64,000 bases of DNA from an uncultured Arcobacteraceae bacterium (GTDB lineage Bacteria > Campylobacterota > Campylobacteria > Campylobacterales > Arcobacteraceae). The stretch is taken from positions 288,001-352,000 of the forward strand of contig CAXHZO010000001.1 in the NCBI GenBank assembly GCA_964022095.1. The letters are read 5' to 3'. The stretch's first letter is position 1; each line of letters starts with the position of its first letter. Position numbers and translations under genes: made by a program. Shown here piece by piece: positions 2,357-20,815 of the stretch. The notes under the pieces were generated by a model. It saw only the letters and a list, made by a program, of their open reading frames with translations, did no database searches and was not told where the DNA came from.

Positions 2357-2431
2357 TTAGTTATGACAAATGTACATTGTCACTTCAAAACCAAATCTGT
2401 TATCTACGAACATAGGTGTTTCCCATTTCAT
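2357..2431 (-). CDS. pqqA: PQQ precursor peptide, copy 1 (MKWETPMFVDNRFGFEVTMYICHN)
   Basis: 24 aa with RxGFEVTMY (ExxxY) core; AAGGAGG RBS; upstream of pqqB. Not in ORF track. Confidence 0.97.
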   Translation of the reverse strand: MKWETPMFVDNRFGFEVTMYICHN

Positions 2432-2467: not shown

Positions 2468-4231
2468 TTACTTATGTAATTTAAATACGTGAACTGTCCC
2501 ACCTTGGTTGATGTTTTTAACAAGTTTTGCAACTTCACCACCCCATAATGGAACAGCACCACCCCAACCAGAAACGATTGCGATATATTGCTCACCATTT
2601 TGAGTCCATGTTACAGGAGATGAAACAATTCCTGAACCAACATTAAAGCTATATAATGTTTCACCAGACTCGTCATCTAATGCTAAGAATTTACCTTCAG
2701 GAGTACCGAAGAATACTAAACCACCAGCAGTAGTTAAAACTCCACCCCATAATGGTGCAGGGTTTTTATAATTCCATTTAATATCACCAGTTAATGGATC
2801 AATTGCTTTTAATGAACCAATATGGTCATCAAAAATTGGTTTAATTGTAAATCCAGCACCTAAGTAAGCAGCACCTTTTTTATAAGAAATTGGTTGATTC
2901 CAAATATCCATACCCCACTCATTTGATGGAACATAGAAGTTACCAGTTTTTTGAGAGTATGCCATTGGCATCCAGTTTTTACCACCTAAGAACGAAGGAA
3001 CAGACCATACTGATTTACCTTTAGACTCAGAACCAGGATTACCAGGTCTTCCATCTTTAGTATATAAAGGTCTTCCATCTTTTCCAATTCCAGTTGCCCA
3101 AGTAATATTTGAAACAAATGGATTAGCAGTAATGAAGTCACCATTAGTTCTATCTAATACATAGAAGAAACCATTTCTATCTGCAGTTGCAGCATATTTT
3201 TTACCATCTTTGTTGAAAGAAATTAACTCATTAACACCATCAAAATCCCATCCATCATGTGGAGTTGTTTGGAAATGCCATACAATTTTACCAGTATCAG
3301 GATCAATAGCTAATCTTGAAGAAGAGTATAAGTTATCACCTGGTCTTGTGTGTGAATTCCAAGGTGCAGGGTTACCAGTACCAAAGAATAAAAGGTCTGT
3401 TTCTGGATCATAAGTACCACCTAACCATGTAGCAGCACCACCAGTTTTCCACATATCACCTGGCCATGTTTTACCAGCTTCACCACCAGTAATTCCATTT
3501 TCTTTACCATTTAAGTAACCCATGTGACCTTCAACAGTTGGTCTATTCCAAACTACTTCACCAGTTTTAGCATTTCTTGCTTCAACTTTACCAACGATAC
3601 CAAATTCACCACCAGCAACACCAGTGATTACCATATCTTTTACGATAATTGGAGCAGCAGTAATTGAGTAACCGTCTTTATATTTTGCAATTCTTTTTTT
3701 CCATACAACTTTACCAGTTTTTCTATCTAAAGCAACTAGTTTAGCATCTAATGTACCGAAAATAAATAAGTTTTCGTATAATGCTCCACCTCTGTTGATA
3801 ACATCACAACAAGGTAAAATTGCGCTTGGTAATTTTGCATCATATTGCCATAATTCTTCACCAGTAGCAATATCAATTGCATACGCTCTTGAATAAGAAC
3901 CAGTTACATACATAACTCCATCTTTAATTAATGGTTGTGACTCTTGTCCTCTTTGTTTTTCCCCACCAAATGAGAAGTTCCATACAGGTACTAAATTTTT
4001 AACAGTCTCTTTATTAACTTGTGTTAATTGTGAGTATCTTTGTCCTTGTAATCCCATACCGTTAGATAATACATCCTCAGTAGATTTTACATCATTTAAT
4101 ACATCGTTACTTGTTACAGTTGCAAAACCTGGCTTAGTAACTTTTTGTACATTAGTATCAGCAACACATCCTGTGATTAACGCAGCTAATGAAACAGCGA
4201 TAGCACTCTTTAATAGTACTTTTTTACTCAT
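2468..4231 (-). CDS. pedH: PQQ-dependent alcohol dehydrogenase, predicted lanthanide-dependent (PedH/ExaF type), putative lipoprotein
   Basis: [21 protein letters not shown] vicinal Cys, GGEFG, active-site [13 protein letters not shown] (extra Asp), [11 protein letters not shown]-terminal LITGC lipobox. Confidence 0.9.
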
Positions 4232-4255
4232 AGTCTCTCCTTAATTTATGTTATA

Positions 4256-4272
4256 ACAAATTGGGAATTTGT
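4256..4272. promoter_or_regulatory. Candidate operator ACAAATT-GGG-AATTTGT in the pedH leader
   Basis: Perfect 7-bp dyad between the -10 box and the RBS; 14-bp reverse-complement copy at 6802-6815. Confidence 0.4.
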
Positions 4273-4281
4273 CTTATCAAA

Positions 4282-4314
4282 AGTATACATGAGAAACATA
4301 GCATAAGTTTAGCT
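4282..4314 (-). promoter_or_regulatory. pedH promoter with regulon motif
   Basis: AGCTAAA-CTTAT-GCTATG-N9-TATACT on the minus strand. Confidence 0.7.
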
Positions 4315-5091
4315 ATTGTTAACTTTTTTAGATTTAAACCCTAAAAAGGCCATAACTAAAGTTATTACTAATGAAATAAATAAGACAAAAAGTGCCTGAT
4401 TATCGACTTTTAAATACAATGCAAACCTAATTGACTCTACTATATATGTAAAAGGATTATATGAAGAAATTTCATATAAAAGTATTGAAGAGTCTTTAAT
4501 TTTCCATAATGGGTACAGTGCTGAGCTTAAAAAGAACATTGGAAAAATAACGAAATTCATTACTGTAGCAAAGTTCTCAAGTTGTTTAATAACTGATGAA
4601 ATAAATAATGCAAAGGCATTTAATATAATTGAAGAGACTATAATTACAGGTATTGTTACTAATATAGCAATAAAACTAATATCAACTCCATAAGCTTTTG
4701 CTATTAATAAAAATGTTACTGCTTGAATAGTTGATACTATTGAAGTAGCAAACATCTTACAAAATAGTAAATAATTTCTATTTATATATGATGATAAAAG
4801 AATCTTCATACTTCCCATCTCTCTATCAAATATCATTGTAAGTGAACTTTGCATACCATTAAATAGTAACACCATCCCTACTAAACCTGGAACTATATAT
4901 GTCTCATATGTAATATATGTTTCATATGGAGGAGTAATTGCTAGTCCAAGTGCAGTTTTAAAACCAACAGAGAAAATAAACAACCATAACAGAGGTCTAA
5001 CAAGTGCTGAAAAAAATCTACTTTTTTGTTTTACAAATCGAATTAACTCTTTATAGATAATTCCCTTCATACAATTAATATATATATTCAT
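4309..5091 (-). CDS. ABC-2 type permease of PQQ-ADH system (PedC/LutF-like)
   Basis: SRFFSALVRPLLWLFIF, LLFNGMQSSL..IFDREMGSMK, LENFATVMNFVIFPMFFLSSALYPLW. Confidence 0.88.
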   Translation of the reverse strand: MNIYINCMKGIIYKELIRFVKQKSRFFSALVRPLLWLFIFSVGFKTALGLAITPPYETYITYETYIVPGLVGMVLLFNGMQSSLTMIFDREMGSMKILLSSYINRNYLLFCKMFATSIVSTIQAVTFLLIAKAYGVDISFIAILVTIPVIIVSSIILNAFALFISSVIKQLENFATVMNFVIFPMFFLSSALYPLWKIKDSSILLYEISSYNPFTYIVESIRFALYLKVDNQALFVLFISLVITLVMAFLGFKSKKVNNS

Positions 5092-5094
5092 GCT

Positions 5095-5826
5095 TTACCT
5101 TACTAAATGGTTGAATGTATCAACTAAATTTTCTTTTTCATATTTGTTAACAATATCTTTTACAATTCCTGACTCTACAATATCACCTGCTTTTATAAAT
5201 GATATATTATCAACTTCTTTTACCTCATCAAATAGATGCGTAATCCAAAGTACACTTACATTTTCTCTTTTAACTAAATCTCTAACATAATCTAATATAT
5301 CAAATCTACTTTTTAAATCTAATCCTACAGTAGGTTCGTCCAACAATAAAAGTTTTGGTTTGTTAATAAGAGCTCTTAAGATTTCAACTCTTCTTCTATG
5401 GCCACCATTTAGTTTTCTTGCTGTTTTATCTAAAACATCTTCAAGCTCTAATCTTTTTATTTCATCTTTTATCGATTCAATAGTTTCTTTAAACCCTAAG
5501 CCTTTAATAGCACCATAGTAGTATAGATTTTGTCTAACTGTTAAATCTAAATCTAATGTTGGTTCTTGAAATACAATCCCAATATCTTTTAATGATTTTG
5601 AATAATTCTCTATTGAGTGTTGATTTATATTAATCTCACCTACTTCTAATTTTAGTAGCCTAGTGATTAATGAGAAAATTGTTGATTTTCCTGCACCATT
5701 TAATCCAAGTAATACAGAAAAGCTTCCCTCATTTATATGAAAGGATATTTTATTTAATACTTTTTTACTACCATATGAAAATTCTACGTCTTTTAGTTCT
5801 AATATTTTTTTACACATTTTTACCAC
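5095..5826 (-). CDS. ABC ATP-binding protein of PQQ-ADH system (PedB/LutE-like)
   Basis: Walker A GLNGAGKS, GIVFQEPTLDLDLTVRQNL, LNGGHRRRVEI, LLDEPTVGLD. Confidence 0.88.
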   Translation of the reverse strand: MVKMCKKILELKDVEFSYGSKKVLNKISFHINEGSFSVLLGLNGAGKSTIFSLITRLLKLEVGEININQHSIENYSKSLKDIGIVFQEPTLDLDLTVRQNLYYYGAIKGLGFKETIESIKDEIKRLELEDVLDKTARKLNGGHRRRVEILRALINKPKLLLLDEPTVGLDLKSRFDILDYVRDLVKRENVSVLWITHLFDEVKEVDNISFIKAGDIVESGIVKDIVNKYEKENLVDTFNHLVR

Positions 5827-5850: not shown

Positions 5851-5883
5851 ATTATATGACATCTTTATAGCATACATTTAGCA
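5851..5883 (-). promoter_or_regulatory. ABC ATPase/permease promoter with regulon motif
   Basis: TGCTAAA-TGTAT-GCTATA-N9-TATAAT on the minus strand. Confidence 0.75.
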
Positions 5884-5893
5884 AAAATCTATT

Positions 5894-5931
5894 AAAAAAA
5901 TACATAACTTGAAAAGTTTCAAGCTATGTAT
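5894..5931 (-). terminator. Intrinsic terminator after pqqA2
   Basis: AUACAUAGCUUGAAA/UUUCAAGUUAUGUAU stem with a G-U pair, followed by a U-tract. Confidence 0.75.
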
Positions 5932-5959
5932 CATAAAACCAAAGAAGGTCAGTTATTTA

Positions 5960-6034
5960 TTATTCATTACAAATATACATTGTAACTTCAAAACCAAATC
6001 TATTATCAACGAACATCGGTGTTTCCCATTTCAT
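5960..6034 (-). CDS. pqqA: PQQ precursor peptide, copy 2 (MKWETPMFVDNRFGFEVTMYICNE)
   Basis: 24 aa, 22 identical to copy 1 with several synonymous differences; AAGGAGG RBS. Not in ORF track. Confidence 0.96.
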   Translation of the reverse strand: MKWETPMFVDNRFGFEVTMYICNE

Positions 6035-6057: not shown

Positions 6058-6759
6058 TTACCAATCAGTTGGACAATCTTTACAACCATCCATATATACT
6101 CCACTTAAGTTTGCATAATGGATTCTTGTTCCTGTAAAAATTGCCTTATGTAAAGACGCACTAGATAATTTAGTTTCTTGTAAATTCGCATTAGTAAAAT
6201 TTGAATTTTCAAAATTTATTCTTGTCATCCATGCCGCTTCTAAATTTACTGCTTGTAAATTACAATTTTTCATACTAGAGCCACTCATTCTTGCAAACTC
6301 AAGATTAGCACCATGAAAAGATGAATTATCAAATGTACTACCTTGTGCAAATAAAGCCCATGCATTTACTCCATCAAAATTACTATTTGATGCTTTTGCA
6401 ACCTTAATATTTGCATGTCTTAAATCTGCTCTTGCTAAATTTGCTCCTTCAAAATTTGAATTACTCATATCTGAATTCTTTAAAATTGCATGTCTTAACT
6501 TTGCATTTTTAAAATTTGACTTTCTCAATATTGATTTTGTCAAATTTACTCCATCAAGAATTGCTCCTTCAAAGTTAGCCCCTTCGAAATTAGACTCTTT
6601 TAAATCTAACCCCGAAAGATTTTGCTTACTTAAATCTACATTTTGACAACTTGTTTTTGGTACTAGCTTACATCCATTAATTATTCTTATTTCGTCATCT
6701 TCATATGCATGAATTAAACTCATAAAAATAATTAAAATAACTATAACTTTTTTCATCAT
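6058..6759 (-). CDS. Exported pentapeptide-repeat protein (PedD-like)
   Basis: Signal peptide, long A(N/D)L/Fxx repeats, Cys pairs at both ends (GCKLVPKTSC, GCKDCPTDW); adjacent to the ADH gene. Confidence 0.85.
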   Translation of the reverse strand: MMKKVIVILIIFMSLIHAYEDDEIRIINGCKLVPKTSCQNVDLSKQNLSGLDLKESNFEGANFEGAILDGVNLTKSILRKSNFKNAKLRHAILKNSDMSNSNFEGANLARADLRHANIKVAKASNSNFDGVNAWALFAQGSTFDNSSFHGANLEFARMSGSSMKNCNLQAVNLEAAWMTRINFENSNFTNANLQETKLSSASLHKAIFTGTRIHYANLSGVYMDGCKDCPTDW

Positions 6760-6823: not shown

Positions 6824-8710
6824 TTATCTTTTAAGTTTAAATACCCAGAAAGAACCACCTTGAGATACAGGTTTAGTTAATTCAGCCATGTCTCCACCCC
6901 ATAAAGGTACAGCTCCACCGTAACCACTTGCAAGTCCTATATATTGTTCACCATCTTCTTCCCAAGTAATTGGACAAGAAATAATTCCAGAACCAGTTTG
7001 GAACTTCCATAACTCTTTACCAGTTTTTGCATCAAATGCTTTAACATAACCATCACCAGTACCTGTAAATACAAGGCCACCTTTAGTAGTTAATACTCCA
7101 GCCCATAATGGTAATTTTTCTTTATGTGACCATACAATTTCGCCTTTTACTGGATCAACTGCTCTTAAAATACCTACATGATCATCATAAGTTCTCTTAA
7201 TTCTAAATCCTTGACCTAAATACGCTGCACCTTTTTTGTACTCAATAGGTTGAGTCCAATAATCTTCTTCCCAATGGTTTGCACCAAGATAGAATAATTT
7301 TGTATCTTCATTATATGCCATTGGGTTCCAGTTCTTACCACCTAAGAATGGTGGAGCAACCTTGATAGCTTTTCCTCTTGTTTTCCCCTCTTCAGGTAAT
7401 GGTGGGTATTGTTTTGGATCAACAACTGGTCTACCTGTTTTTGGGTCAATATGACTTGCCCATGTAATCTTATCAACAAATGGGAAAGCTTTAATAAATC
7501 TTCTTGCTTGATCTTCTCTTTGCTTATCAGCTTTTTTCATAGTTTCTCTATTAATTACATAGAAGAATCCATTTCTATCTGCATGTCCAGTAGCTTTAAT
7601 TGTTTTACCATTTTCTACATAATCAAATAGTACTAATTCATTATTACCTGAGAAATCCCATGCATCATTTGGTGTATGTTGGTAGAACCATTTAATATCA
7701 CCAGTAGTTGGGTCAACTGAAATTTGTCCTGATGTATATAAACTATCCCAATCTCTTGGATCTCCACCATCAGCAGTTCTTTCCCAAGTATTCCATGGTG
7801 CTGGATTTCCAGTACCTATAATAATTGAGTTTGTTTCATAATCATAACTAGCACTTTGCCATGGTGCACCACCACCGTGACTCCAAGCTGTTTTTTTACC
7901 AGTAGGATTATTTTTATCATCTGGCCAAGTTGGAGCTTTAGGATCTCCTGTTGGAGTTGATTTTTTACCATTTAATCTACCATAGTGACCTTCAACCATA
8001 GGTCTCATCCAGATCTCTTTACCTGTATCTGGATCTAATGCAAATAATTTACCTATAACACCGAATTCATCACCTGATGAACCATGGATTAACATTACTT
8101 TTCCAGTTTTTTTATCTTTTACAATAGTTGGAGCACCAGTCATAGTATAACCGTCTTGATACCCTTTATTTGGTCTATCTGCATATCCAAATCTTTTTTT
8201 CCAGATCACTTTTCCTGTATCTTTATTTAATGCAACAATACCAGCATCTAAAGTACCAAAGAATACTTTATCTCCAAATATAGCTGCACCTCTGTTAATT
8301 ACATCACAACAAGGTTTAATATCTGAAGGTAATCTATGCTCATATTCCCATATTTTTTTACCACTTTTTGAATCAAGTGCAAATAATCTTGAATATGATC
8401 CAGTTACATATATTTTTCCATCATGAACTAAAGCTTGAGACTCTTGTCCTCTTTGTTTCTCTCCTCCAAATGAAAACGTCCAAGCTGGTACTAAATCTTT
8501 AATAGTTTTAGTATTTATCTCATCAAGTTTTGAGTATCTTTTTGCTTCTGGTCCCATACCATACATTAATACATCTTCAGTTGTATTTTTATCATTTAAG
8601 ATATCGTCCCATGATACTTTTTTTGTTTCAGTACTTGCAACACTAGATTGAAGTCCTAATAAACCAACAAAAGTCATAACAGCTGCTTTTTGTAACAAAT
8701 GATTTCTCAT
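6824..8710 (-). CDS. exaA: PQQ-dependent ethanol dehydrogenase, predicted calcium-dependent (PedE/ExaA type)
   Basis: [32 protein letters not shown] (Ser in place of the extra Asp), FLGGKNWNPM. Confidence 0.92.
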   Translation of the reverse strand: MRNHLLQKAAVMTFVGLLGLQSSVASTETKKVSWDDILNDKNTTEDVLMYGMGPEAKRYSKLDEINTKTIKDLVPAWTFSFGGEKQRGQESQALVHDGKIYVTGSYSRLFALDSKSGKKIWEYEHRLPSDIKPCCDVINRGAAIFGDKVFFGTLDAGIVALNKDTGKVIWKKRFGYADRPNKGYQDGYTMTGAPTIVKDKKTGKVMLIHGSSGDEFGVIGKLFALDPDTGKEIWMRPMVEGHYGRLNGKKSTPTGDPKAPTWPDDKNNPTGKKTAWSHGGGAPWQSASYDYETNSIIIGTGNPAPWNTWERTADGGDPRDWDSLYTSGQISVDPTTGDIKWFYQHTPNDAWDFSGNNELVLFDYVENGKTIKATGHADRNGFFYVINRETMKKADKQREDQARRFIKAFPFVDKITWASHIDPKTGRPVVDPKQYPPLPEEGKTRGKAIKVAPPFLGGKNWNPMAYNEDTKLFYLGANHWEEDYWTQPIEYKKGAAYLGQGFRIKRTYDDHVGILRAVDPVKGEIVWSHKEKLPLWAGVLTTKGGLVFTGTGDGYVKAFDAKTGKELWKFQTGSGIISCPITWEEDGEQYIGLASGYGGAVPLWGGDMAELTKPVSQGGSFWVFKLKR

Positions 8711-8780: not shown

Positions 8781-8813
8781 ATTATACATTTTAATTATAG
8801 CCTTAGTTTAGCA
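8781..8813 (-). promoter_or_regulatory. exaA/pedE promoter with regulon motif
   Basis: TGCTAAA-CTAAG-GCTATA-N9-TATAAT on the minus strand. Confidence 0.75.
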
Positions 8814-9004: not shown

Positions 9005-9973
9005 CTAATTTTTTTTCTCACTTGGAATTACAGCTAATCCCCAAGGATATCTTCCTACTTTTATACTTTTTTCTACTTTTAAAGATTCTACATCTATTAT
9101 AGATACATCTCCACTAACACCGTTTGTTGTATATAGTTTTTTTTCATTATCTGCTAAAGCTAATTGCCAAACTCTACTTCCAACTAATAGGTATTTAATT
9201 ACTTTATAAGTTTTTGCATCAACAACAGCTACATGATTTGCAGGCCCTAAGGCTACAAATGCATATTTACCATCACTTGTTAACTGTATACCAACTGGTT
9301 GAATTAAGTCTTTAAAGATTCCAGGAATTTTAAAACCAAATTTTGCAATTTCTTCTTTTGTTTTTGCATCAACAACCATTACTGTTCCACCAATCTCAGA
9401 AGAAGCCCAAACTTTATCACCTGATTCAGTAAACTCAATATGTCTTGGTCTTTCATCAACTAATGTATTGTGAACAATTTTTTTACTTTTTGTATCAATC
9501 CAATGTAAAAAATTAGATGTTTCTGATGTATTAATTGCAACGCTTCCATCTGGACTAACAGCCATACCTTCTGGCTCTAAACCTACTTCAATTTGTGATA
9601 CAACAGTTTTATTAGGAATATCAACAACTGTTACAATACCATCATCTTCATTGGATATGTAAAGCTCTTTCCCATCTGGATGTAAAGCGAACTGTTCAGG
9701 ATCTTCACCTGAAGGAAGATCATATAAAATTTTTCCAGTTTTTGTATCCATGGCTTGTACTGTATCATCATCACTAGCACAAATATATAATTTTGTGTAA
9801 TCATTATTTAATAAGATACCTCTTGGCCTTTGACCAACTTCATAAGTTTGCACAACTTTTTGAGTATTTGAGTCAATTACTGAAATAGTATTATCTTTTT
9901 CATTTGAAACAAAAATTGTATCTGAAAGTAGTGCTGAACTTAAAATAGAAATTAATCCTAATTTCTTTAACAT
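9005..9973 (-). CDS. PQQ-catabolism-associated YVTN beta-propeller protein (PedA1-like)
   Basis: FVSNEKDNTISVID, GQRPRGI, LPSGEDPEQF, VGLEPEGM, YTTNGVSGDVS, VGRYPWG repeats; signal peptide. Confidence 0.88.
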   Translation of the reverse strand: MLKKLGLISILSSALLSDTIFVSNEKDNTISVIDSNTQKVVQTYEVGQRPRGILLNNDYTKLYICASDDDTVQAMDTKTGKILYDLPSGEDPEQFALHPDGKELYISNEDDGIVTVVDIPNKTVVSQIEVGLEPEGMAVSPDGSVAINTSETSNFLHWIDTKSKKIVHNTLVDERPRHIEFTESGDKVWASSEIGGTVMVVDAKTKEEIAKFGFKIPGIFKDLIQPVGIQLTSDGKYAFVALGPANHVAVVDAKTYKVIKYLLVGSRVWQLALADNEKKLYTTNGVSGDVSIIDVESLKVEKSIKVGRYPWGLAVIPSEKKN

Positions 9974-10024: not shown

Positions 10025-10453
10025 TTATTTAACTATAAAAGTAGCTCTTTCTCTATCACTTTTAGCTGAAGGAAGACCTAATGTATACGTTCCTGGCTTA
10101 ATAGGTATAAAAGTTAATTCAATCTCACCCTCATCATCAAATTCAAAACTATCAATTCCTAATGGTCTTACTTCAATATCATTAATAGATACTTGATTTA
10201 CCCAAATATTTCTAAAAAATTCTGGACCTACAATAGGAATTTCTCTTGAACCATCACTTTTTAACTCGATTTTATAGTATTTACCAGCTACTAAATTATA
10301 AGGTTTTTCTGCTAATGCTTTACCAGCACCAATAGTTATAGGCTCTAGTGTTGTTCTAGAGTGTAATAAACCTTTAATATTTGCTGCAAAAGCAAATTCA
10401 CTTGTTAAAAGCACCATAAATAAACATAACGCAATCTTCTTAATCATTTTCAA
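10025..10453 (-). CDS. Exported protein, cupredoxin-like fold, lacking copper ligands
   Basis: Signal peptide; L.AGKYYKIEL and FIPIKPGTY strands typical of cupredoxin-like proteins; acidic DSFEFDDEGEIE; no Cys in the mature part. Confidence 0.6.
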   Translation of the reverse strand: MKMIKKIALCLFMVLLTSEFAFAANIKGLLHSRTTLEPITIGAGKALAEKPYNLVAGKYYKIELKSDGSREIPIVGPEFFRNIWVNQVSINDIEVRPLGIDSFEFDDEGEIELTFIPIKPGTYTLGLPSAKSDRERATFIVK

Positions 10454-10487: not shown

Positions 10488-10520
10488 ATTGTATTAAAGT
10501 TTTATAGCTTCAGTTTAGCA
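10488..10520 (-). promoter_or_regulatory. Promoter with regulon motif (cupredoxin-like/beta-propeller operon)
   Basis: TGCTAAA-CTGAA-GCTATA-N9-TACAAT on the minus strand. Confidence 0.75.
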
Positions 10521-10542
10521 TTTAATGTTTTTCTTATTATTT

Positions 10543-10575
10543 TGCTAAACTATAGCTATATATTTTCTATACAAT
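10543..10575 (+). promoter_or_regulatory. Promoter with regulon motif (SBP-DUF302 operon)
   Basis: TGCTAAA-CTATA-GCTATA-N9-TACAAT on the plus strand. Confidence 0.75.
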
Positions 10576-10601: not shown

Positions 10602-11750
10602 ATGAAAATTATAATTTCGATACTTTTTTTAATAAGTTTAATAAAAGCAGAAATACTAGAAGTTAATATCTTATATTTAGAACAAAAAATACAAAAGCCA
10701 CCTATTCTTTCAAATGTTATTGAAGAGCCTGAGGACTTAGGACTAAAAGGTGCACAAATTGCTATTAAAGATAGTAATAAAACGGCAAAGTTTTTAAATC
10801 AACACTATAATTTGATAGAAAAAATATCTTACGATAAAAAAGAGCTAAAAAAAGATTTTGAAGAATTTATAAATAGTGGAAATTCATATATACTTTTAAA
10901 TGTTGAAGATGATTTTTTTAAAGAGTTACTAAATAACCCACTTTCAAAAAAAGCATTATTAATAAACTCAAGTAGTAAAACAACTGACTTAAGAAAACAA
11001 TATTGTCAAGAGAATTTACTTCATACAATTTCAAGCAATGCAATGCTTTATGATGGATTAGTACAATTTCTAATAAAAAGAAACTTCAAAGATATATTTT
11101 TAATTAGTGGAGAAAATCCAAAAGATAACCTAATTGTAAAAGATATAAAAAGAGCAATTAAAAAATTTAATGCAAATATAATTAAAGAAAAAGTTTGGGA
11201 TAATAATAGTGATATTAGAAGAAAAGCAAATGCAGAGTTTCCAGTATTTACTCAAGCAAAAGATTATGATTTAGTTATGTTAGCTGATCACTATGGGGAT
11301 TTTGGCGAGTTTATGTATTTTAATACTTGGCTTCCAAGACCAGTTGCAGGAACACAAGGATTAACTCCTGTTACTTGGCATAAAGTTATTGAAGCTTGGG
11401 GTGCAGCACAAATGCAAAGTAGATTTGAAGATTTTGCTTCTAGATGGATGCAATCAAAAGACTATTCAAACTGGGTAGCAATTAGAACAATTATTACATC
11501 GATTTCAAAAACAAAAACTTCTGATTTAAAAACAAATTTAGAGCTTATTAGATCAAAAAGTTTTGATATAGCTGCATATAAAGGAAGAAAACTATCTTTT
11601 AGAGACTATAATGGGCAATTAAGAATGCCTGTTTCTTTAGTACAACCAAGAGCACTTATTTCAACTTCACCGCAGGTTGGTTTTTTACATCCTGAAACTG
11701 ATTTAGATACATTAGGTATTGCACCATTTGAAATGGAGTGTAAAAAATGA
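10602..11750 (+). CDS. ABC substrate-binding protein of PQQ-ADH system (PedA2/LutA-like)
   Basis: WLPRPVAGTQGLTPVTWH..EAWGAAQMQSRF, YKGRKLSFRDYNGQLR, SPQVGFLHPETDLDTLG; start moved to ATG 10602 (AAGGA RBS, promoter upstream). Confidence 0.85.
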   Translation: MKIIISILFLISLIKAEILEVNILYLEQKIQKPPILSNVIEEPEDLGLKGAQIAIKDSNKTAKFLNQHYNLIEKISYDKKELKKDFEEFINSGNSYILLNVEDDFFKELLNNPLSKKALLINSSSKTTDLRKQYCQENLLHTISSNAMLYDGLVQFLIKRNFKDIFLISGENPKDNLIVKDIKRAIKKFNANIIKEKVWDNNSDIRRKANAEFPVFTQAKDYDLVMLADHYGDFGEFMYFNTWLPRPVAGTQGLTPVTWHKVIEAWGAAQMQSRFEDFASRWMQSKDYSNWVAIRTIITSISKTKTSDLKTNLELIRSKSFDIAAYKGRKLSFRDYNGQLRMPVSLVQPRALISTSPQVGFLHPETDLDTLGIAPFEMECKK

Positions 11751-12205
11751 TAAAAGTTCTCTCTTTATTTTTACTTTTTATTAGTTACGTAAGTGCTTCA
11801 TATGAAGTAATTGATGAGGAGAATATTTTTACAATTAAAACAAAAGACATTAGTTTTGATGAGTTACATATAAACTTAGAAGATGAGATTACTTTTCAGA
11901 GTTTTGTAATTGTTCATAAATTAGATTTAGCAAAATCAACAGCTAAAGTTGCTGAGGCTTTAGAAAAAAAAGCTGTTTTAAAAAAAGGTATAAATATACT
12001 TATTTGTAAAAGTAGTTTTACACTTGCTATGCATGAAGAGAATATTAAAAATATTACATATTGTCCTTTAAATATTTCAGTATATGCAGATGAACAGTAT
12101 AATTATATATCTTATAAAAAATATGATAATTTTGGTAAAGATGATAAAATAGCTAATGAGATAAATGAAAAGTTAAAAAATATTGTTTTAAAGAGTTTGG
12201 ATTAA
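11747..12205 (+). CDS. Exported DUF302-family protein
   Basis: Signal peptide, ILIC...YCPLNISVY pattern; ATGA overlap with the upstream gene. Confidence 0.65.
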   Translation: MIKVLSLFLLFISYVSASYEVIDEENIFTIKTKDISFDELHINLEDEITFQSFVIVHKLDLAKSTAKVAEALEKKAVLKKGINILICKSSFTLAMHEENIKNITYCPLNISVYADEQYNYISYKKYDNFGKDDKIANEINEKLKNIVLKSLD

Positions 12206-13972: not shown

Positions 13973-16481
13973 CTACTCTCTAAATTTTTTTTCACCAACA
14001 TCTTCTAATATTTGTTTAGCAAGTTTATTTGAATTAGCTGCTATATCATGAGTTTGTGAAGCAATTTCTGCATTTTCTTGAGTTTGCTTATCTAAGCTAT
14101 AAACTGCACTATTAATTTGCTCTATTCCAGATAATTGCTCTTTACTTGATTTATCAACAAAATCAATTAAATGTAAAGTCTCTTCAATATTGTTATTAAG
14201 TTTTTTATATCCTTCAATCATTTCAGAAGCAATACCTTTACCTTCATTTGCTTTGAAGCTTGCATCTTCAACTAATTTTTTTATCTCATCAGCTGCTTGG
14301 GCACTTCTACTTGCTAAGTTTCTAACTTCTTGAGCAACAACAGCAAATCCTTTTCCAGCTTCACCTGCAGTTGCTGCTTCAACGGCTGCATTAAGAGATA
14401 AAATATTTGTTTGAAATGCAATTTGATCAATCACTTCAATTGCTTCACTAATAGCAGTTACTTTTTCGTTTATTTCATCCATAGAAGAGTTTGTTTTATT
14501 AGCTAATACTTCCCCACTTGTAGAAGACTCATTTACTTTTTTAGAATAGTTAGTCATTTTATAAATATTCTCTGAACTATTTCTAATATTTGATGTAATC
14601 TCTTCAATTGATGAAGATGTCTCCTCTAAAGATGCTGCTGCTTGAGTAGAACTAAGCTTTAATTTATTTACATTGTCAAGTAAAGTATCTGATTGTCTAT
14701 CAATAGTTAATCCTCTTTGTTTACTTTTATTTAGCATTGTAGAGATTGAATCACCTAAATAATTTACTCCTTGTGCTAAATTTAATAAATCTTCTTTTAA
14801 TCCATTTGTATCTACTTTTTCTAAATAATCATAATTTGAATATTTATCTAAAATATTTAAAACCTTATTTATATTAGATTCTAAATTCCCTGCCATATTA
14901 TTAAGTACATCTTGTAATTGCATTAAAGAAGGATTAGATACATTTTGATTTAATCTTTTTGACAAATAACCCTTTTCAAAATCACCTAACACTGCTATTG
15001 TTTCATCAATTAGTTTTCTATCTTCATCTATTGATTTTTTAGTAATTTGAACATTCTCATTTAAAATACTTGCCATTTGACCTATTTCATCATCATTAAC
15101 AACTTCTAATAATACAGCATCATCTGATTTATGATTTAAATATGAAAAGAAAGAGTCTAATCCATCTTTTAATTTTTCAATTGGATTTATTATTAGTTTG
15201 CTTATTAAACTAATAGAGATAATCAAAAATATTGTGATACTTACAATTGAAGCAATTAATACAAATCTTCTAAGCTCATATGCTGTTTGAAAAGCTTCAT
15301 CTTCATCAATTTCAGACACTAATACCCATTTTGTTTGATCAAAAATATTTATTACCTCAAAAGCACTTAATACACTAATCCCTCTATAATCATCAATTAT
15401 CCAATTAGCTTCATTTATATTTTTTTCAAAGGCTGCTTTTGTTGTATCTGTTTTTACTTCCCAAATACCAATAGTTGAATTTAACTCTTTTACAATGTCA
15501 TCATTTATGTCATTTAAAAATCTAGAGTTGTTTCTCATTTTATAATCACTACCAATTAAATAAGCCTCACCACTTTTTCCAAAACCTGATTCTTCATAAT
15601 CTCCATTAAAACTCATAATGTCATTGATTTTATCAACTGGCATTTGAAAAATTAAAACACCTTGTTTCTTATCATTTATAAAGATAGGTGTTGCAATAAA
15701 GGAAGCAGCTGAATTATAACTAGGCTCATAGGGAGCAAAATCTTCAAAAGCAATTTCATTTTTATTTAACTGTAATGCTTTTTTATAAACTTTTCCAATA
15801 CCTGTTTTTGAATATACACCATTAATTAAATTTGTACCAAAATCTTTTTCTTTGAAGTCTGTGTAAATTAAGTTACCCTTTAAATCTACCATGAAAATAT
15901 CATATAAACTATAATTAATTAAGAATTCATTGAAAGTGCTATGGTATAACTTATGTGCCTCCATATATTTAGACTTATATTTTTCATTATAAACTAAATT
16001 GTTTTTTTCTCCCAATTTTTCTTTATTATCAGTAATAAAAATATATTGAGCAATTAAAGAGTTATTATTAATTGGAAGATAGGTATCCATATCTTTTCTT
16101 GAATCACTATTTGGGACTTTATAATTTACCAAATCTAAATAGTTTGTCTTAAAATCTTTTGAAATTTCTTCTTCAATAAAATCAATATCTAAATCAATTT
16201 CATTAGATAAATTATGAAAACCTTCTTCAAAATCTACAAAAGCATCTTTTGTAGTTTTACTTTGAGATAAAGATAAAAGAAGTGATTGTAATGTTCCAAA
16301 ATAAGATTGAATTTCATTCTTTTTAGTAGTTTTGATAGCTTGTAGCTTATTCATTTCTGATTTTTCTAAAGATTTCATTGACATATCTATAGATAGATAT
16401 GAGATAATAGAACCTAGAAAAATCAAACTAAATGCGATTAAAGTAATTAACTTAAATCTAATTGATAAGTTTTTTTTTCAT
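13973..16481 (-). CDS. Methyl-accepting chemotaxis protein (Cache-like sensor), frameshifted at A9 tract directly after the ATG
   Basis: [30 protein letters not shown] signalling motif; ATG at 16481 with RBS is one base out of frame with the long ORF. Confidence 0.85.
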
Positions 16482-16552: not shown

Positions 16553-16951
16553 CTAGTACTTACCAAACTCTTTATATGTTTTATCTTCAAAAATTATAAA
16601 GACTGTTTTTGGATCATTATCATTCTCATAAGCAGGTAATGCTAAACCAATTGAGTCCTTAATTGGTTTTGCTAAAAAATCTTTTATAGCTTTTGAAGGA
16701 ACATTACCTTCAAATACATAATCATTTAAAAAAGAGGTATTACATGATTGTATTTCAAAAGGAACACCAACATCTTTTTTTATTGCTTTTACGCTTCTTA
16801 AAGTTATGATCTCTACATCTTTTGCAACTAAATTCATCTCTTCATACCAAGAAGGAGGACAAGTACTACTTAGAGGTTTAAAAACTTGCATTTTCCCTTC
16901 ACTTGCAAACAATGCAACTACTAAACTAGCTAAAATAAATATTTTTTTCAT
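16553..16951 (-). CDS. Exported DUF411-like protein, degenerate metal ligands
   Basis: KKDVGVPFEIQSCNTS...YVFEGNVP...IGLALP matches the DUF411 pattern (SCHT, EGHVP, GLAVP). Confidence 0.65.
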   Translation of the reverse strand: MKKIFILASLVVALFASEGKMQVFKPLSSTCPPSWYEEMNLVAKDVEIITLRSVKAIKKDVGVPFEIQSCNTSFLNDYVFEGNVPSKAIKDFLAKPIKDSIGLALPAYENDNDPKTVFIIFEDKTYKEFGKY

Positions 16952-17661
16952 ATTTCACCTTTTAATATATTTGGATATTCATCAAAAAGATTGTTTTTAA
17001 TCTCATCAATTCTTTTTAAATCAAAACTTTGTTCATTTGGGTTGTTAAACTCTAAAATTACCTTTGCAGGATTTTTTGAAAAGAAGAATATTCTATTTGA
17101 AAATAAAATAGCCTCACTTATATCATGAGTTACAAGAATAACTATTGGATTGAATTTTTTGCAAAGTTCTAAAAAGTCTTTTTTAAGCTCTTGAGAAGTT
17201 GGAAAATCTAAAGAAGTAAAAGGCTCATCAAGTAAAATTAATTTCGGTTGATTTATAAATGCTCTTACAAATGCAACTCTTCTTTTCATGCCCCCTGATA
17301 ATACTTTTGGATATTCATCTAAAAAATCTTCTAAATCGATTAATCTTAGTAATTCTATTATATCTTCAATACTTTTTGATTGAGAAACTAATAAAAGATT
17401 CTCTTTAATTGTTAGCCAAGGAACTAATCTATCATCTTGAAAAACAAAAGAAATCTCATCAAAAGGTATATCAATATGTCCACAATAGTCATTATCTAAG
17501 TTTGATAAAATATTTAAAAAAGTACTTTTACCACACCCTGATGGACCAATTATTGATATAAATTCATTCTCTTTTACATTCATATTTATATCTTTTAATA
17601 TGGTTTTAGTGTTGTATTCTTTTGAGCTTATATTTATATCAATCATACTATTTCCATGCAT
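16948..17661 (-). CDS. NitT/TauT-family ABC ATP-binding protein
   Basis: GPSGCGKST, FVFQDDRLVPW, LSGGMKRRV, LLDEPF. Confidence 0.88.
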   Translation of the reverse strand: MHGNSMIDINISSKEYNTKTILKDINMNVKENEFISIIGPSGCGKSTFLNILSNLDNDYCGHIDIPFDEISFVFQDDRLVPWLTIKENLLLVSQSKSIEDIIELLRLIDLEDFLDEYPKVLSGGMKRRVAFVRAFINQPKLILLDEPFTSLDFPTSQELKKDFLELCKKFNPIVILVTHDISEAILFSNRIFFFSKNPAKVILEFNNPNEQSFDLKRIDEIKNNLFDEYPNILKGEI

Positions 17662-18379
17662 TTATTTTATTTTCTATTGGCTTTAATATATAGTTCTCAA
17701 TTAATAATATAACAATAATAAAAGCTAAAGAATAAGCTAAAATAGATGTAATATTAAAAAATTGGAAAAACATTGATATTTTAAATCCAATCCCATCACT
17801 TCTACCAAGTAACTCTACAACTAAAACAATCTTCCAAATTAAAGATAAGGATAATCTTGTTGAAGCCATTATATATGGATAGATTTGAGGTAAAAAAACT
17901 TTAAAGAAAGTTTCTTTTTTTGATACTTTATATACTTGTGCTAGTTTTAAATACTTTTGCTCAACTGCTCTAGTGCCTTCTCTAATATTAACTACAACAA
18001 TTGGTACTTTATTTAAAATAACAGCCAATAATGCTGCAAAATCTGTTAATCCAAACCAAATATAGCAAATAACAATCGTAACTAATGCAGGTATATTTAA
18101 ACTAAGAATTAATATAAAATCAAATATATCATCTACTTTTTTTGATAAACCCATTGCTATACCAATAAATATTCCAATAAGCATTGTAATAAAAAATGTT
18201 ACAAATACTCTATAAAGAGTAATTCCTAAGTGATGAAACAGTTCTCCATCCCCCATATGTCTAATTAAATCATAAAAGATATCAACAACACTTGGGAATA
18301 CTGAAGATTCTATAGTAACAGCAATAGCTTGCCAAAGTATTACAAAAATAAATATTGATATTAGTTTAGTTTGATTCAA
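17648..18379 (-). CDS. NitT/TauT-family ABC permease
   Basis: Hydrophobic; LNIPALV, REGTRA, WKIVLVVELLGRSDGIGF. Confidence 0.88.
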   Translation of the reverse strand: MNQTKLISIFIFVILWQAIAVTIESSVFPSVVDIFYDLIRHMGDGELFHHLGITLYRVFVTFFITMLIGIFIGIAMGLSKKVDDIFDFILILSLNIPALVTIVICYIWFGLTDFAALLAVILNKVPIVVVNIREGTRAVEQKYLKLAQVYKVSKKETFFKVFLPQIYPYIMASTRLSLSLIWKIVLVVELLGRSDGIGFKISMFFQFFNITSILAYSLAFIIVILLIENYILKPIENKINAWK

Positions 18380-18393
18380 AATATAATTCCCAT

Positions 18394-19350
18394 TTATTTT
18401 TCAAAGTCCCAGAAAGTTTTTGTTTGTAAATAATTACTATTTTTAACTAATTTTCTACCACCCTGCTTTAGAAGAATCTCAAATATTTTTGAAGAATCTT
18501 TAATGTTTTTCTTTGTAAAATCTTTAATTACACCTGCTTTATAACCATCTATTAATGCATTAAAAGTTTTTTCATCTTTCACGTTCATTAATGGTTTAAT
18601 TCTCTCCCACTCTTTTTTATTATTTATTAAAATATCTTTTGCTTCATGTGTAGCTTTTATAAAAGAGTTATATAATTTTTTATTTTCTAAAGCAATATCT
18701 CTTCTAAAAGTCCATCCAACAGTTGAAATATCTTCTTTTATTCCAAAAGAAGCAAATACATCTTTAATTCTTATAAATTCTTTCGCCCCTTTTGCTTTAA
18801 CTTTTGCATTAAAATGCCAAAAATTAATTGCTCCATCTAATGAGCCATCTAATACTTTTTTCATTAAAATTGGAGGAGCAGCAAAAACTGGCTTAATTAT
18901 ATTTTTCAAATCTTTACCATATTTTAACTTTGAATAAGCCCTTAAGATTAGCCATGTTTTATCAACAGGACCTCCAGCAATACCTATACTTTGTCCTTCC
19001 AAATCTAAAATAGTTTTTGCATTATTATTTTTGTTTATATACATAGTGCCATTAGCTTTTGAATAAGGATAAAAAGTAAAATCTTTACCACTCGCTCTTT
19101 GAGTATTAACCCAAATCCAATCAGTAACAAAAATATCTACACTTTTAGATTGAAAGGCAACAGAGGTGGCATTTTTTGATGCTAATTTAACAATATCTAA
19201 ATCAAAGCCATATTTTTTATCTAATTTATGATGTTTTATTACATTTAGTTCCCAATTTACAGTACCAAAGGCAAGAACTCCAACTTTTAATTTTTCACTT
19301 GCACTAAGATTCAAAATTAATAAAAAGATTAAAAAATTCACTTTTTTCAT
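18394..19350 (-). CDS. NitT/TauT-family ABC substrate-binding protein
   Basis: VGVLAFGTVNWEL, VTDWIWV, GIAGGPVDKTW, NFWHFNAK; signal peptide. Confidence 0.85.
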   Translation of the reverse strand: MKKVNFLIFLLILNLSASEKLKVGVLAFGTVNWELNVIKHHKLDKKYGFDLDIVKLASKNATSVAFQSKSVDIFVTDWIWVNTQRASGKDFTFYPYSKANGTMYINKNNNAKTILDLEGQSIGIAGGPVDKTWLILRAYSKLKYGKDLKNIIKPVFAAPPILMKKVLDGSLDGAINFWHFNAKVKAKGAKEFIRIKDVFASFGIKEDISTVGWTFRRDIALENKKLYNSFIKATHEAKDILINNKKEWERIKPLMNVKDEKTFNALIDGYKAGVIKDFTKKNIKDSSKIFEILLKQGGRKLVKNSNYLQTKTFWDFEK

Positions 19351-19379: not shown

Positions 19380-19412
19380 ATTGTATATGAGTTTTATAGC
19401 ATAAATTTAGCA
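19380..19412 (-). promoter_or_regulatory. Promoter with regulon motif (TauT-like ABC operon)
   Basis: TGCTAAA-TTTAT-GCTATA-N9-TACAAT on the minus strand. Confidence 0.75.
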
Positions 19413-19432: not shown

Positions 19433-19465
19433 TGCTATAATGAGGCTATAAAAAGAGTCTATAAT
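19433..19465 (+). promoter_or_regulatory. Promoter with regulon motif (cytochrome c550 operon)
   Basis: TGCTATA-ATGAG-GCTATA-N9-TATAAT on the plus strand. Confidence 0.7.
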
Positions 19466-19500: not shown

Positions 19501-19932
19501 ATGAAAAATATTCAAAAAATTGGATTAGCTACACTATTTTCTGCAGTAGTAGCATTTGGACATGGAAGTGTTACACCTCAAGCTATTGATTTAGCTGCTG
19601 TTGAAAAAGCTGGTGTAAAATTACTTGGTGAAGAATTATTAGATGAAAATCCATATAAAACAACTGATGATAAAGTAATTGAATTTGGTAAAGTACAATA
19701 TGCTGAAAACTGTGCTAGATGTCATGGATTAGATGCTGTTTCTGGTGGAATTGCTCCTGATTTAAGATACTTAGAAGATGGTATGGATGGTGATGAATGG
19801 TTCACTGATAGATTCATGAATGGTGCAGTTAGAAACGGTAACGTTTATATGCCTCCATTTGAAGGTATCTTACCACAAGAAGCAATGTGGGCAATTAGAA
19901 CTTACGTTCAAGCTTTACCAAAAGAAGACTAA
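19501..19932 (+). CDS. pedF: Cytochrome c-550, ADH electron acceptor (PedF/ExaB)
   Basis: HGSVTPQAID, ENPY, NCARCHGL heme motif, SGGIAPDLRYL, VYMPPFEG. Confidence 0.92.
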   Translation: MKNIQKIGLATLFSAVVAFGHGSVTPQAIDLAAVEKAGVKLLGEELLDENPYKTTDDKVIEFGKVQYAENCARCHGLDAVSGGIAPDLRYLEDGMDGDEWFTDRFMNGAVRNGNVYMPPFEGILPQEAMWAIRTYVQALPKED

Positions 19933-19942
19933 AAGGTAAACA

Positions 19943-20815
19943 ATGATTAATATTTTTAAATCGTTTTTTTTAGTAATTTTATTTACACTTTTTGCACATG
20001 CAAGAAGTATAGAAGAAATCCAAGAGAGTGGAGAAGTTTATATAGCAGTATATGAAAACTTCCCTCCTTACTCTTTTACTAAAAATGGTAAATTAGTAGG
20101 TGTTGATGTAGATTTAGGTAATGAGATTGCTAAGTCCCTAAATGTTAAACCTATTTTTTATCAGACAGGTACAGATGAGACTTTGTCAGACGATTTAAGA
20201 AATAATCTTTGGAAAGGTAATCTAGTTCATAAGCACAAAGCGGACATCATGTTCAGAGTTCCTTATGACTATGATTACTTAAGATTAAAAGATGACTATA
20301 CTGGTGAATTACAAAATGAAATGGTTACTATTAAAGGACCATATCAAAGTGAAAAATGGGTTATAGCAACTCATAAAAAAATTATCCCAGAATTTAAAAA
20401 TCTTGCTATGTTTGCATATCATACAATTGGTGTAGAGTTAGACACTCTTCCTGATAATCATTTATCTGGTTTCGCAAGAGGTTTAATTAGAGAAAAAGTT
20501 AAGCACTATTTTAGATATGAAGATGCAGTAAAAGATTTTTTAGATGGAAAACTTGATGCCATTGCAGGTTTAAGATCACAACTTGAGTATTATTTAGATT
20601 ATAACAATAATAAAGATAAGTACTACATGAGTGATAGTATTCCTCAAATGAAATCACATTGGGATTTAGCAGTAGCTGTTGAAAGCCTTTATAGACCGTT
20701 AGGTTATCACATCGCTGGCCTAATTTCTAAAAAATATAATAATGGTGAAATTAAGAAAATCTTTGAAAAATATGGAGTAAATTATCTTCCTCCAATTTCT
20801 AGAACGGCTCAATAA
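19943..20815 (+). CDS. Periplasmic substrate-binding-fold protein associated with quinoproteins (PedG/MxaJ-like)
   Basis: AVYENFPPYSF, DETLSDDLRNNLWKG, ADIMFRVPYD; follows cytochrome c550. Confidence 0.8.
   Translation: MINIFKSFFLVILFTLFAHARSIEEIQESGEVYIAVYENFPPYSFTKNGKLVGVDVDLGNEIAKSLNVKPIFYQTGTDETLSDDLRNNLWKGNLVHKHKADIMFRVPYDYDYLRLKDDYTGELQNEMVTIKGPYQSEKWVIATHKKIIPEFKNLAMFAYHTIGVELDTLPDNHLSGFARGLIREKVKHYFRYEDAVKDFLDGKLDAIAGLRSQLEYYLDYNNNKDKYYMSDSIPQMKSHWDLAVAVESLYRPLGYHIAGLISKKYNNGEIKKIFEKYGVNYLPPISRTAQ

Follow-up and report, generated by a model that had tools for sequence, protein, structure and literature searches.

The DNA analysed here, hereafter the window, is a stretch of 64,000 nucleotides (nt) from an uncultured Arcobacteraceae bacterium (NCBI GenBank assembly GCA_964022095.1, contig CAXHZO010000001.1, positions 288,001 to 352,000), and it opens with a ped-type gene cluster that holds two genes for alcohol dehydrogenases (ADHs) dependent on pyrroloquinoline quinone (PQQ). 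Read along the minus strand, the genes run in the order orf142, pedA2, the 628-aa ADH, pentapeptide-repeat gene, pqqA, pedB, pedC, the 587-aa ADH, a further pqqA, and pqqB, C, D and E. pedA1 and orf152 are divergent from these genes, and PedF, a binding protein, a SoxYZ-like carrier and a relay metallohydrolase are encoded 10 kb further on. The two ADHs differ at one position of the predicted metal site. An intact open reading frame for a 587-aa protein (2468..4231, minus strand) contains the motif WDFDGVNE at 3227..3250, in which the catalytic Asp329 is followed two residues later by an extra, predicted lanthanide-coordinating Asp331; the pair aligns to D323/D325 in 6ZCV numbering. An intact frame for a 628-aa protein (6824..8710, minus strand) contains WDFSGNNE at 7637..7660, with the catalytic Asp352 and with Ser354 where the lanthanide Asp would sit. 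Both motifs are minus-strand translations, exactly where the initial annotation had placed them; a plus-strand reading gives LINTIKIP and FIIT*EIP and was rejected. The codon for D331 is GAT (3239–3241) and that for S354 is TCA (7649–7651). Since these codons are unlike at all three bases, the contrast between D-x-D and D-x-S is not a single-base slip.

Both proteins belong to TIGR03075, the methanol/ethanol family of PQQ-dependent dehydrogenases (curated cut-off 480.05 bits, model length 530), and both lie well above its cut-off: the 587-aa protein scores 768.8 bits over positions 5–530 and the 628-aa protein 721.9 bits over positions 3–530. No other gene of this type occurs in the 2.57-Mb genome, which is 99.99% complete. 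Searched against all PDB sequences, the two part company. The 587-aa protein matches 6zcw and 6zcv best (890 and 886 bits), with 1flg at 638, whereas the 628-aa protein matches 1flg best (1021 bits), with 6zcw at 657; methanol dehydrogenases score only about 300–360 bits against either. 6ZCW is described as Pseudomonas putida PedH with Pr3+ (PMC11996626, PMC11845868), and 1FLG has been used as P. aeruginosa ExaA (PMC5487730).

The metal ligands of PedH are given as Glu199, Asn281, Asp323 and Asp325, the Asp pair being named as lanthanide ligands (PMC11845868). Counted along the 6zcv alignment, these four correspond to E209, N287, D329 and D331 of the 587-aa enzyme, which also has vicinal cysteines, C141–C142 in the motif PCCDV, predicted to form the disulfide of quinoprotein ADHs. 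The 628-aa enzyme has such a pair at C134–C135, and its E215, N302, D352 and S354 align to E179, N266, D316 and S318 of 1FLG, of which we take the first three to be the metal ligands in that numbering. By these features, both proteins are ordinary members of their groups, PedH/ExaF for the first and PedE/ExaA for the second, and the first is predicted to depend on Ln3+ and the second on Ca2+. That the extra Asp marks lanthanide enzymes, and Ala, Ser or Thr calcium enzymes, had been asserted in the initial annotation, and the literature bears it out: the residue two positions after the catalytic Asp is reported as Ser in PedE and Asp in PedH (PMC5487730), and lanthanide function is reported lost in XoxF1 D320A and ExaF D319S (10.1101/2020.02.25.964783).

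The two enzymes are only 49% (BLAST) to 54% (MAFFT) identical to each other. The 628-aa enzyme carries several insertions, one of which, a charged stretch of 12 residues (KADKQREDQARR, residues 393–404, 7499–7534 on the minus strand), has no counterpart in ExaA as represented by 1FLG. The N-terminus of the 587-aa enzyme (residues 1–22, 4166–4231 on the minus strand) ends in a lipobox-like L-I-T-G-C22, after which comes a linker of about 15 residues. By a crude regular expression, 28 of 52 Campylobacterota D-x-D rows have a pattern of this kind, as against 0 of 56 gammaproteobacterial rows, not all N-termini of the latter having been parsed. The lanthanide-type enzyme may therefore be a lipoprotein here.

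The division into two types is more than chance. Our tree (FastTree, 142 rows, 584 columns, identical cores removed) draws its rows from the window, from a scan of 184 Arcobacteraceae species genomes and from 80 named loci. Characterised ExaF, PedH, PedE and ExaA sequences are not among the rows, and the clades are anchored via PDB scores instead. At the +2 position, 117 rows have D and 25 have S, and this state changes once on the tree, at a branch with support 100; none of 500 label shuffles gives so low a count. The D-x-D proteins of Campylobacterota (50 rows) group in a single clade with support 100, whose sister (support 91) consists of 55 gammaproteobacterial rows; two Methylobacterium proteins also fall on the D-x-D side. 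Among the anchors, a D-x-D row from Pseudomonas reaches 1115 bits to PedH vs 670 to ExaA, its D-x-S neighbour 1185 bits to ExaA vs 693 to PedH, and the Methylobacterium organophilum D-x-D row 877 bits to PedH vs 696 to ExaA. By tree placement and by these anchors, the 587-aa enzyme thus lies inside the PedH/ExaF clade and not outside it. The 628-aa enzyme lies inside the D-x-S clade of 25 rows (support 100), within which the 9 Arcobacteraceae proteins form one clade (support 99). No donor of the D-x-S gene can be named from the tree, in which the branching order among the D-x-S groups of Arcobacteraceae, gammaproteobacteria and Rhodocyclaceae is not resolved. Base composition gives no help with the donor either: G+C content is 30–33% in the ADH region vs about 27% around it, and about 28% in the window. 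Among named organisms, Malaciobacter pacificus (90%), Arcobacter arenosus (83%) and Poseidonibacter (73%) have the nearest homologues, which places the host in Arcobacteraceae.

In the family scan, ADHs of this type occur in 56 of the 184 genomes, with 60 matches. The motif reads W-D-[FY]-D-G at 51 places, of which one is interrupted by a TAA stop and another truncated at the end of a contig, and WDFSGNNE at the other 9. Forty-seven genomes have the D-x-D type only, 5 have the D-x-S type only (confirmed by a second search, and spread over three genera), and 4 have both: the window genome, a congener (G156), and the genomes G168 and G170. The named loci agree, as a D-x-S gene lies within the flanks of 0/10 Campylobacterota loci vs 16/70 proteobacterial ones. 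Thus, the lanthanide-type enzyme alone is the rule in the family and the pair is the exception. The usual form in Arcobacteraceae, and the ancestral one, is the D-x-D enzyme. PedA1 (TIGR03863), the binding protein of the predicted lanthanide uptake system, follows this division. It is found in 47 of the 51 genomes with a D-x-D gene, in none of the 5 with D-x-S only, and in 2 of the 128 with neither ADH, which is the pattern that the lanthanide and calcium assignments predict. The initial annotation had read the two proteins as metal-alternative isoenzymes, and clade, PDB matches, the four lanthanide ligands and PedA1 co-occurrence are all favourable to that reading at the sequence level.

Gene order indicates how the second enzyme arrived. 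Loci with only the D-x-D type read pedA2-pedB-pedC-ADH-pqqA-pqqBCDE, and those with the D-x-S type alone have the order ADH-pentapeptide-pqqA-pqqBCDE. A block of the D-x-S gene and its pentapeptide-repeat gene lies between pedA2 and pedB in the window, G156 and G168; in G170 it lies 12 kb off. In the window and G156, this block also has a second pqqA and a terminator-like hairpin. The corresponding features of the window are the pentapeptide-repeat gene (6058..6759, minus strand, matching NCBIfam pentapeptide models); the second pqqA, which is the last gene of the block (5960..6034, minus strand, 24 aa, MKWETPMFVDNRFGFEVTMYICNE); and a closing hairpin with a 15-bp stem and a T run (5899..5932, minus strand). 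The other pqqA (MKWETPMFVDNRFGFEVTMYICHN, 2357..2431, minus strand) stands after the D-x-D gene and is likewise followed by a hairpin (2306–2339). The two PqqA copies differ only in their last two residues, and their coding parts are nearly identical, with silent differences. This duplication, with one copy per ADH unit and a strong hairpin after each, is shared only with G156, not with G168 or G170. The pentapeptide-repeat gene directly follows the D-x-S gene in all 25 D-x-S loci checked, and PP_2673, its counterpart in P. putida, is reported to fall together with PedE on addition of lanthanum (La; PMC7188995). Since the block has its own pqqA and hairpin, the D-x-S enzyme came as a self-contained cassette of ADH, pentapeptide-repeat gene, second pqqA and terminator, inserted into a pedA2BC-pedH operon. 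In D-x-S-only genomes (G091 and G043; loci L145 and L146), the cassette is found where the D-x-D gene would otherwise be, immediately ahead of pqqA-pqqBCDE, and the D-x-S-only genomes lack PedA1.

Both ADH genes share a promoter element. Aligned upstream regions of the family's D-x-S genes yield the pattern GCTAAAYTnAnGCTAT, which we call the ped box. In the window it occurs 9 times with up to 2 mismatches, against 2.3 expected, and none of 100 shuffles reaches 9; in the genome it occurs 13 times with up to 1 mismatch, vs once for the reversed control pattern. All 4 exact genome copies, and 8 of the 13 matches, lie within 25 kb that hold the ped genes and a gene for an aldehyde dehydrogenase (ALDH). 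The box precedes the D-x-S gene (GCTAAACTAAGGCTAT, 8797..8812, minus strand, 10 nt upstream of TATAAT), the D-x-D gene (GCTAAACTTATGCTAT, 4298..4313, minus strand, 10 nt upstream of TATACT) and pedB (5867..5882, minus strand, 1 mismatch). Divergent boxes serve orf142/pedA2 (10504–10519, minus) and pedA1 (10544–10559, plus), and again an NMT1-type ATP-binding cassette (ABC) transporter operon (19396–19411, minus) and pedF (19434–19449, plus, 2 mismatches). The box before the ALDH gene lies just outside the window, at 10646–10683 of the upstream piece L147 (contig 1 of the window genome, G000, 272001–288400). In 8/8 promoter-proximal cases, the box ends exactly 10 nt 5′ of a TAnnnT hexamer. It is present in all 12 Campylobacterota ped loci and in none of the 5 proteobacterial ones. 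Some genera have a variant first half, CCTATA.

The pho box, the site of PhoB, consists of a direct repeat whose period is 11 bp; it stands in for the −35 element, and its end lies 10 nt 5′ of the −10 hexamer. The ped box resembles it in period, spacing and −35 replacement and differs from it in sequence (GCTAAA-N5-GCTATA); binding of a regulator to the ped box is a prediction. A sigma-54 promoter was considered because the GC-N9-GC spacing fits, and was rejected: the −24 GG occurs in only 3 of 8 aligned D-x-S promoters, a normal −10 hexamer sits at a constant distance of 10 nt, and the regulator encoded nearby is of OmpR type and not an enhancer-binding protein. A generic promoter scan found fewer sigma-70-like sites than shuffled sequence (44 vs 66.7) and was not used for promoter calls.

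The two promoters are not identical in every respect. The D-x-D gene has a leader element, AAGACAAATT...TTTGTTA (4240–4275, minus strand), placed after its −10 hexamer and ahead of its start codon. In the form AAGACAA...GTTG/A it is found in most D-x-D leaders, with a variant GACAAC...GTTGC in other genera, and a regular expression finds it in 0/9 regions upstream of D-x-S genes. An RNA hairpin in this leader was rejected, as RNAalifold gives an energy of 0 and 0 pairs for 29 leaders, that is, no consensus structure; an apparent compensatory change between genera was seen by eye and does not fall in the same alignment register. With its own promoter and its own terminator, each ADH gene could in principle be controlled differently from the other.

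In P. putida, the exchange of the two enzymes is reported to require the kinase PedS2 and the LuxR-type regulator PedR2 (PMC6115532). Gammaproteobacterial loci with both ADHs have a PedS2/PedR2-type pair next to the pentapeptide gene. Queries were taken from one such locus in Marinobacter (L039), with domains confirmed (a HAMP/HisKA_3 kinase and a LuxR-type regulator). The kinase query has no match in the window genome, and the regulator query has matches to receiver domains only, at 34 bits or less. HisKA_3 (PF07730) and GerE (PF00196) both count 0 in this genome, the controls being positive in 7 and 12 of 14 genomes. What the cluster has nearby is a different two-component system. Three kilobases before the window lies the ALDH gene together with DUF779, and divergent from them are genes for a histidine kinase with a FIST domain and a regulator of the OmpR family (all within L147 8575–13348, by domain matches, the regulator, at 284689–285348 of contig 1, having Response_reg and Trans_reg_C). 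An orthologue of this kinase lies 4–12 kb from the ADH gene in 39 of the 56 ADH genomes and on another contig of a fragmented assembly in 16; in the remaining genome (G167, locus L141), where the D-x-D gene is the one broken by a TAA stop, no close kinase orthologue was found. The module of ALDH-DUF779 and kinase-regulator pair is also conserved in 6/6 genomes without a PQQ-ADH, and 5 of these keep a box facing the ALDH gene. From these features, the FIST kinase and OmpR-type regulator most likely drive a common alcohol/aldehyde regulon that includes both ADH genes.

Taken together, these results favor an explanation in which the cluster encodes two periplasmic PQQ ethanol dehydrogenases that carry out the same chemistry with different metals, are induced together through the ped box, and differ in origin, the D-x-S enzyme having come with a cassette; we put the probability of this explanation as a whole at about 80%. 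The 587-aa enzyme, probably lipid-anchored, would hold a lanthanide ion through Glu209, Asn287, Asp329 and the extra Asp331. The 628-aa enzyme would hold Ca2+ through Glu215, Asn302 and Asp352, with Ser354 replacing the extra Asp. PQQ for both would come from the adjacent pqqABCDE genes and lanthanide from PedA1A2BC. Electrons from both would pass to cytochrome c550 PedF, and the aldehyde product to the ALDH encoded 6 kb away. The cassette, with its promoter, ADH, pentapeptide-repeat gene, pqqA and terminator, would have entered between pedA2 and pedB. Because the same ped box occupies the −35 position of both promoters, both ADHs are probably switched on together with the ALDH, by one activator that is most likely the neighboring FIST kinase with its OmpR-type regulator.

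Several points weigh against this explanation. First, the kinase-regulator pair is found in many genomes without any PQQ-ADH, and the proposal that the OmpR-type regulator acts at the ped box is drawn only from adjacency, box architecture and co-conservation. Second, PedH-type proteins are reported to bind Ca2+ when lanthanide is absent (PMC11845868), and metal preference in type 2b ADHs is not always predictable from clade (preprint 10.64898/2026.07.10.737718). Third, 4 of the 51 D-x-D genomes have no PedA1 match, in assemblies that are 61–94% complete, and the genomes are related rather than independent, so that co-occurrence counts overstate their support. Finally, the profile score of pedB, 279.7 bits, is below the curated cut-off of 302.

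Two rival accounts of how the pair is used stand at roughly equal odds. It is possible, if short of probable, that a true reciprocal switch operates as in P. putida, with lanthanides repressing the D-x-S cassette and inducing the D-x-D gene through some other regulator. Such a switch would suit the arrangement of the two ADH genes as separate transcription units, each with a box, a −10 element and a terminator, the presence of the extra leader element only at D-x-D promoters, and the La repression reported for the pentapeptide partner of PedE in P. putida (PMC7188995); two such enzymes would also be most useful when used by turns. However, PedS2 and PedR2 are not found in the genome, which has 0 HisKA_3 and 0 GerE domains, and both promoters have the same activator-type box. 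Equally conceivable is a passive choice, in which alcohol or aldehyde induces both enzymes through the common box and the available metal decides after translation which of them becomes active. The same box at the same 10-nt spacing before both ADHs, the transporter genes, pedF and the ALDH gene speaks for this possibility, as do the way in which the box accompanies the kinase-regulator-ALDH module, also in 5 of 6 genomes checked that lack a PQQ-ADH, and a kinase with a FIST sensor domain instead of a PedS2-type sensor region. Yet the D-x-D-specific leader element hints at a further layer of control, and lanthanides are reported to regulate transcription in every system studied so far (PMC6115532, PMC11845868). 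The initial suggestion that the pair is the prerequisite for a lanthanide switch holds as far as the word prerequisite and no further: PedS2/PedR2, the sole switch regulator so far characterised for such a pair, is without a counterpart in the genome, and both ADH promoters have one activator-type box.

A broader scheme for the family may be sketched, with some reserve. Arcobacteraceae could be a large group of lanthanide users that has gone unrecognised (a D-x-D gene occurs in 51 of 184 genomes, mostly with no calcium backup) and that controls alcohol oxidation by a regulon of its own. In this regulon, every ped unit and the ALDH gene would have a PhoB-like ped box instead of a −35 element, driven by a cytoplasmic FIST kinase and an OmpR-type regulator and not by PedS2/PedR2. 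The calcium-type enzyme would be a portable cassette that either replaces the lanthanide enzyme, with loss of PedA1, or is added to it, and any switch would work by an undescribed mechanism that might involve the D-x-D leader element. Specialisation of the two paralogues for substrate and not for metal, with the 587-aa enzyme perhaps also using Ca2+, could draw on their 49–54% identity, on the insertions of the D-x-S enzyme (among them the 12 residues that ExaA lacks) and on the broad metal selectivity reported for a PedE-type enzyme (PMC10409515), but it is improbable given that the four lanthanide ligands are all conserved, that D or S is fixed across 142 sequences, that PedA1 goes with D-x-D and is missing from D-x-S-only genomes, and that D-to-S and D-to-A substitutions are reported to abolish lanthanide function in ExaF and XoxF1 (10.1101/2020.02.25.964783).

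It is useful to set the locus beside systems already described. The 587-aa enzyme resembles PedH of P. putida KT2440 (6ZCW/6ZCV) and ExaF of Methylorubrum extorquens AM1 in full-length homology (890 bits), the four ligands, the vicinal Cys pair and clade, and its companions, PedA1A2BC, a c550 cytochrome and pqq genes, are also those of PedH/ExaF systems. It differs from them in its low-GC (about 28%) Campylobacterota host, in its lipobox-like N-terminus with a linker of about 15 residues, and in the position of its gene directly behind pedC and before pqqA. Like ExaA of P. aeruginosa (1FLG) and PedE of P. putida, the 628-aa enzyme has the E/N/D calcium ligands, Ser at +2, the vicinal Cys pair and an adjacent pentapeptide gene; unlike them, it has a 12-residue insertion (relative to 1FLG), belongs to a cassette with its own pqqA inside a transporter operon, and is rare, occurring in 9 of 184 genomes. 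The ped cluster of P. putida KT2440 offers the same inventory of enzymes, transporter, cytochrome, relay proteins and pentapeptide protein, in another gene order; PedS2/PedR2 are not found here, and a family-specific box with a FIST kinase and an OmpR-type regulator stands in their stead. The XoxF/MxaF switch of methylotrophs, whose regulators are MxbDM, MxcQE and MxaY, likewise pairs a lanthanide-type (D-x-D) with a calcium-type PQQ dehydrogenase in one genome, but the present enzymes belong to a different subfamily and have no small subunit.

A lanthanide/calcium ADH pair is thus of a known kind, PedE/PedH pairs being well described, and it apparently has not been described before in Arcobacteraceae. 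Our literature search turned up no publication dealing with lanthanide-dependent or PQQ alcohol dehydrogenases from this family, although a 2019 survey, "Rare earth element alcohol dehydrogenases widely occur...", may list such sequences. Three papers, PMC11996626, PMC11845868 and the preprint 10.64898/2026.07.10.737718, have 0 mentions of Arcobacter, Campylobacter or Epsilon in their main text, and the readable supplements of PMC11996626 have none either. What differs here is the host lineage, the dominance of the lanthanide-only state in the family, the calcium-type enzyme as a cassette and, instead of PedS2/PedR2, a lineage-specific box with another two-component system.

Lanthanide-dependent enzymes are known mainly from methylotrophs and Pseudomonas putida. 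Arcobacteraceae often occur in sediments of the coast, in sewage and in waters affected by oil. The locus and 50 relatives in the family scan put a PedH-type enzyme in Campylobacterota. They also provide a natural comparison set of 47 lanthanide-only, 5 calcium-only and 4 dual-enzyme species, in which PedA1 follows the lanthanide enzyme; this comparison independently supports a connection of PedA1A2BC with the use of lanthanides. With a shared box and no PedS2/PedR2, both the existence and the mechanism of a rare-earth switch outside Proteobacteria become directly testable. The interest of the locus is moderate and lies mainly in this extension at the level of the phylum and in its different regulatory wiring, which can be tested.

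The remaining genes of the cluster complete the system. All four components of PedA1A2BC, the predicted lanthanide uptake system, are present: the periplasmic binding protein PedA1 (10602..11750, plus strand, TIGR03863, 414 bits), the YVTN beta-propeller PedA2 (9005..9973, minus, TIGR03866, 493 bits) and the permease PedC (4309–5091, minus, TIGR03861, 346.9 bits), each above its cut-off, and the ATPase PedB (5095–5826, minus, TIGR03864), whose lower score is given above. PedA1A2BC of P. putida is reported to have this four-gene composition and to be needed for growth at nanomolar La (PMC6839425). Translation of pedA1 likely starts at the ATG at 10602 and not at the TTG at 10542, because the ped box and −10 element lie inside the TTG extension. 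The PQQ genes pqqB (1327–2244), pqqC (566–1312), pqqD (328–612) and the start of pqqE (3–338, running off the window) are all on the minus strand, with profiles above the curated cut-offs. On the plus strand, cytochrome c550 PedF (19501–19932, TIGR04494, 176 bits, cut-off 122) is followed by the binding protein (19943–20815), the SoxYZ-like carrier (20832–21569) and the relay metallohydrolase (21569–22456); the neighbors of PedF include matches to TIGR04557 and TIGR04558.

Other genes recur around ped clusters. The small secreted proteins orf142 (10025–10447, minus) and orf152 (11747–12205, plus) are conserved in ped clusters of the family and have no Pfam or NCBIfam match; a relative of orf142 (35%) occurs in a Neptuniibacter locus, and orf152 always comes after pedA1. 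The ABC operon under the ped box (16553–19350, minus) encodes an NMT1/THI5-like binding protein, a permease and an ATPase, together with a DUF411 protein, and it is conserved next to ped clusters in several genera (L008, L009, L012). ExbB/ExbD genes adjoin the DUF779-ALDH/kinase-regulator module. Finally, large methyl-accepting chemotaxis proteins are encoded on both sides of the cluster (13973–16426 and 23968–26532, both minus), and Arcobacter caeni has a related one between pedA2 and pedB (L007, 6430); chemotaxis may thus be linked to the ped system.

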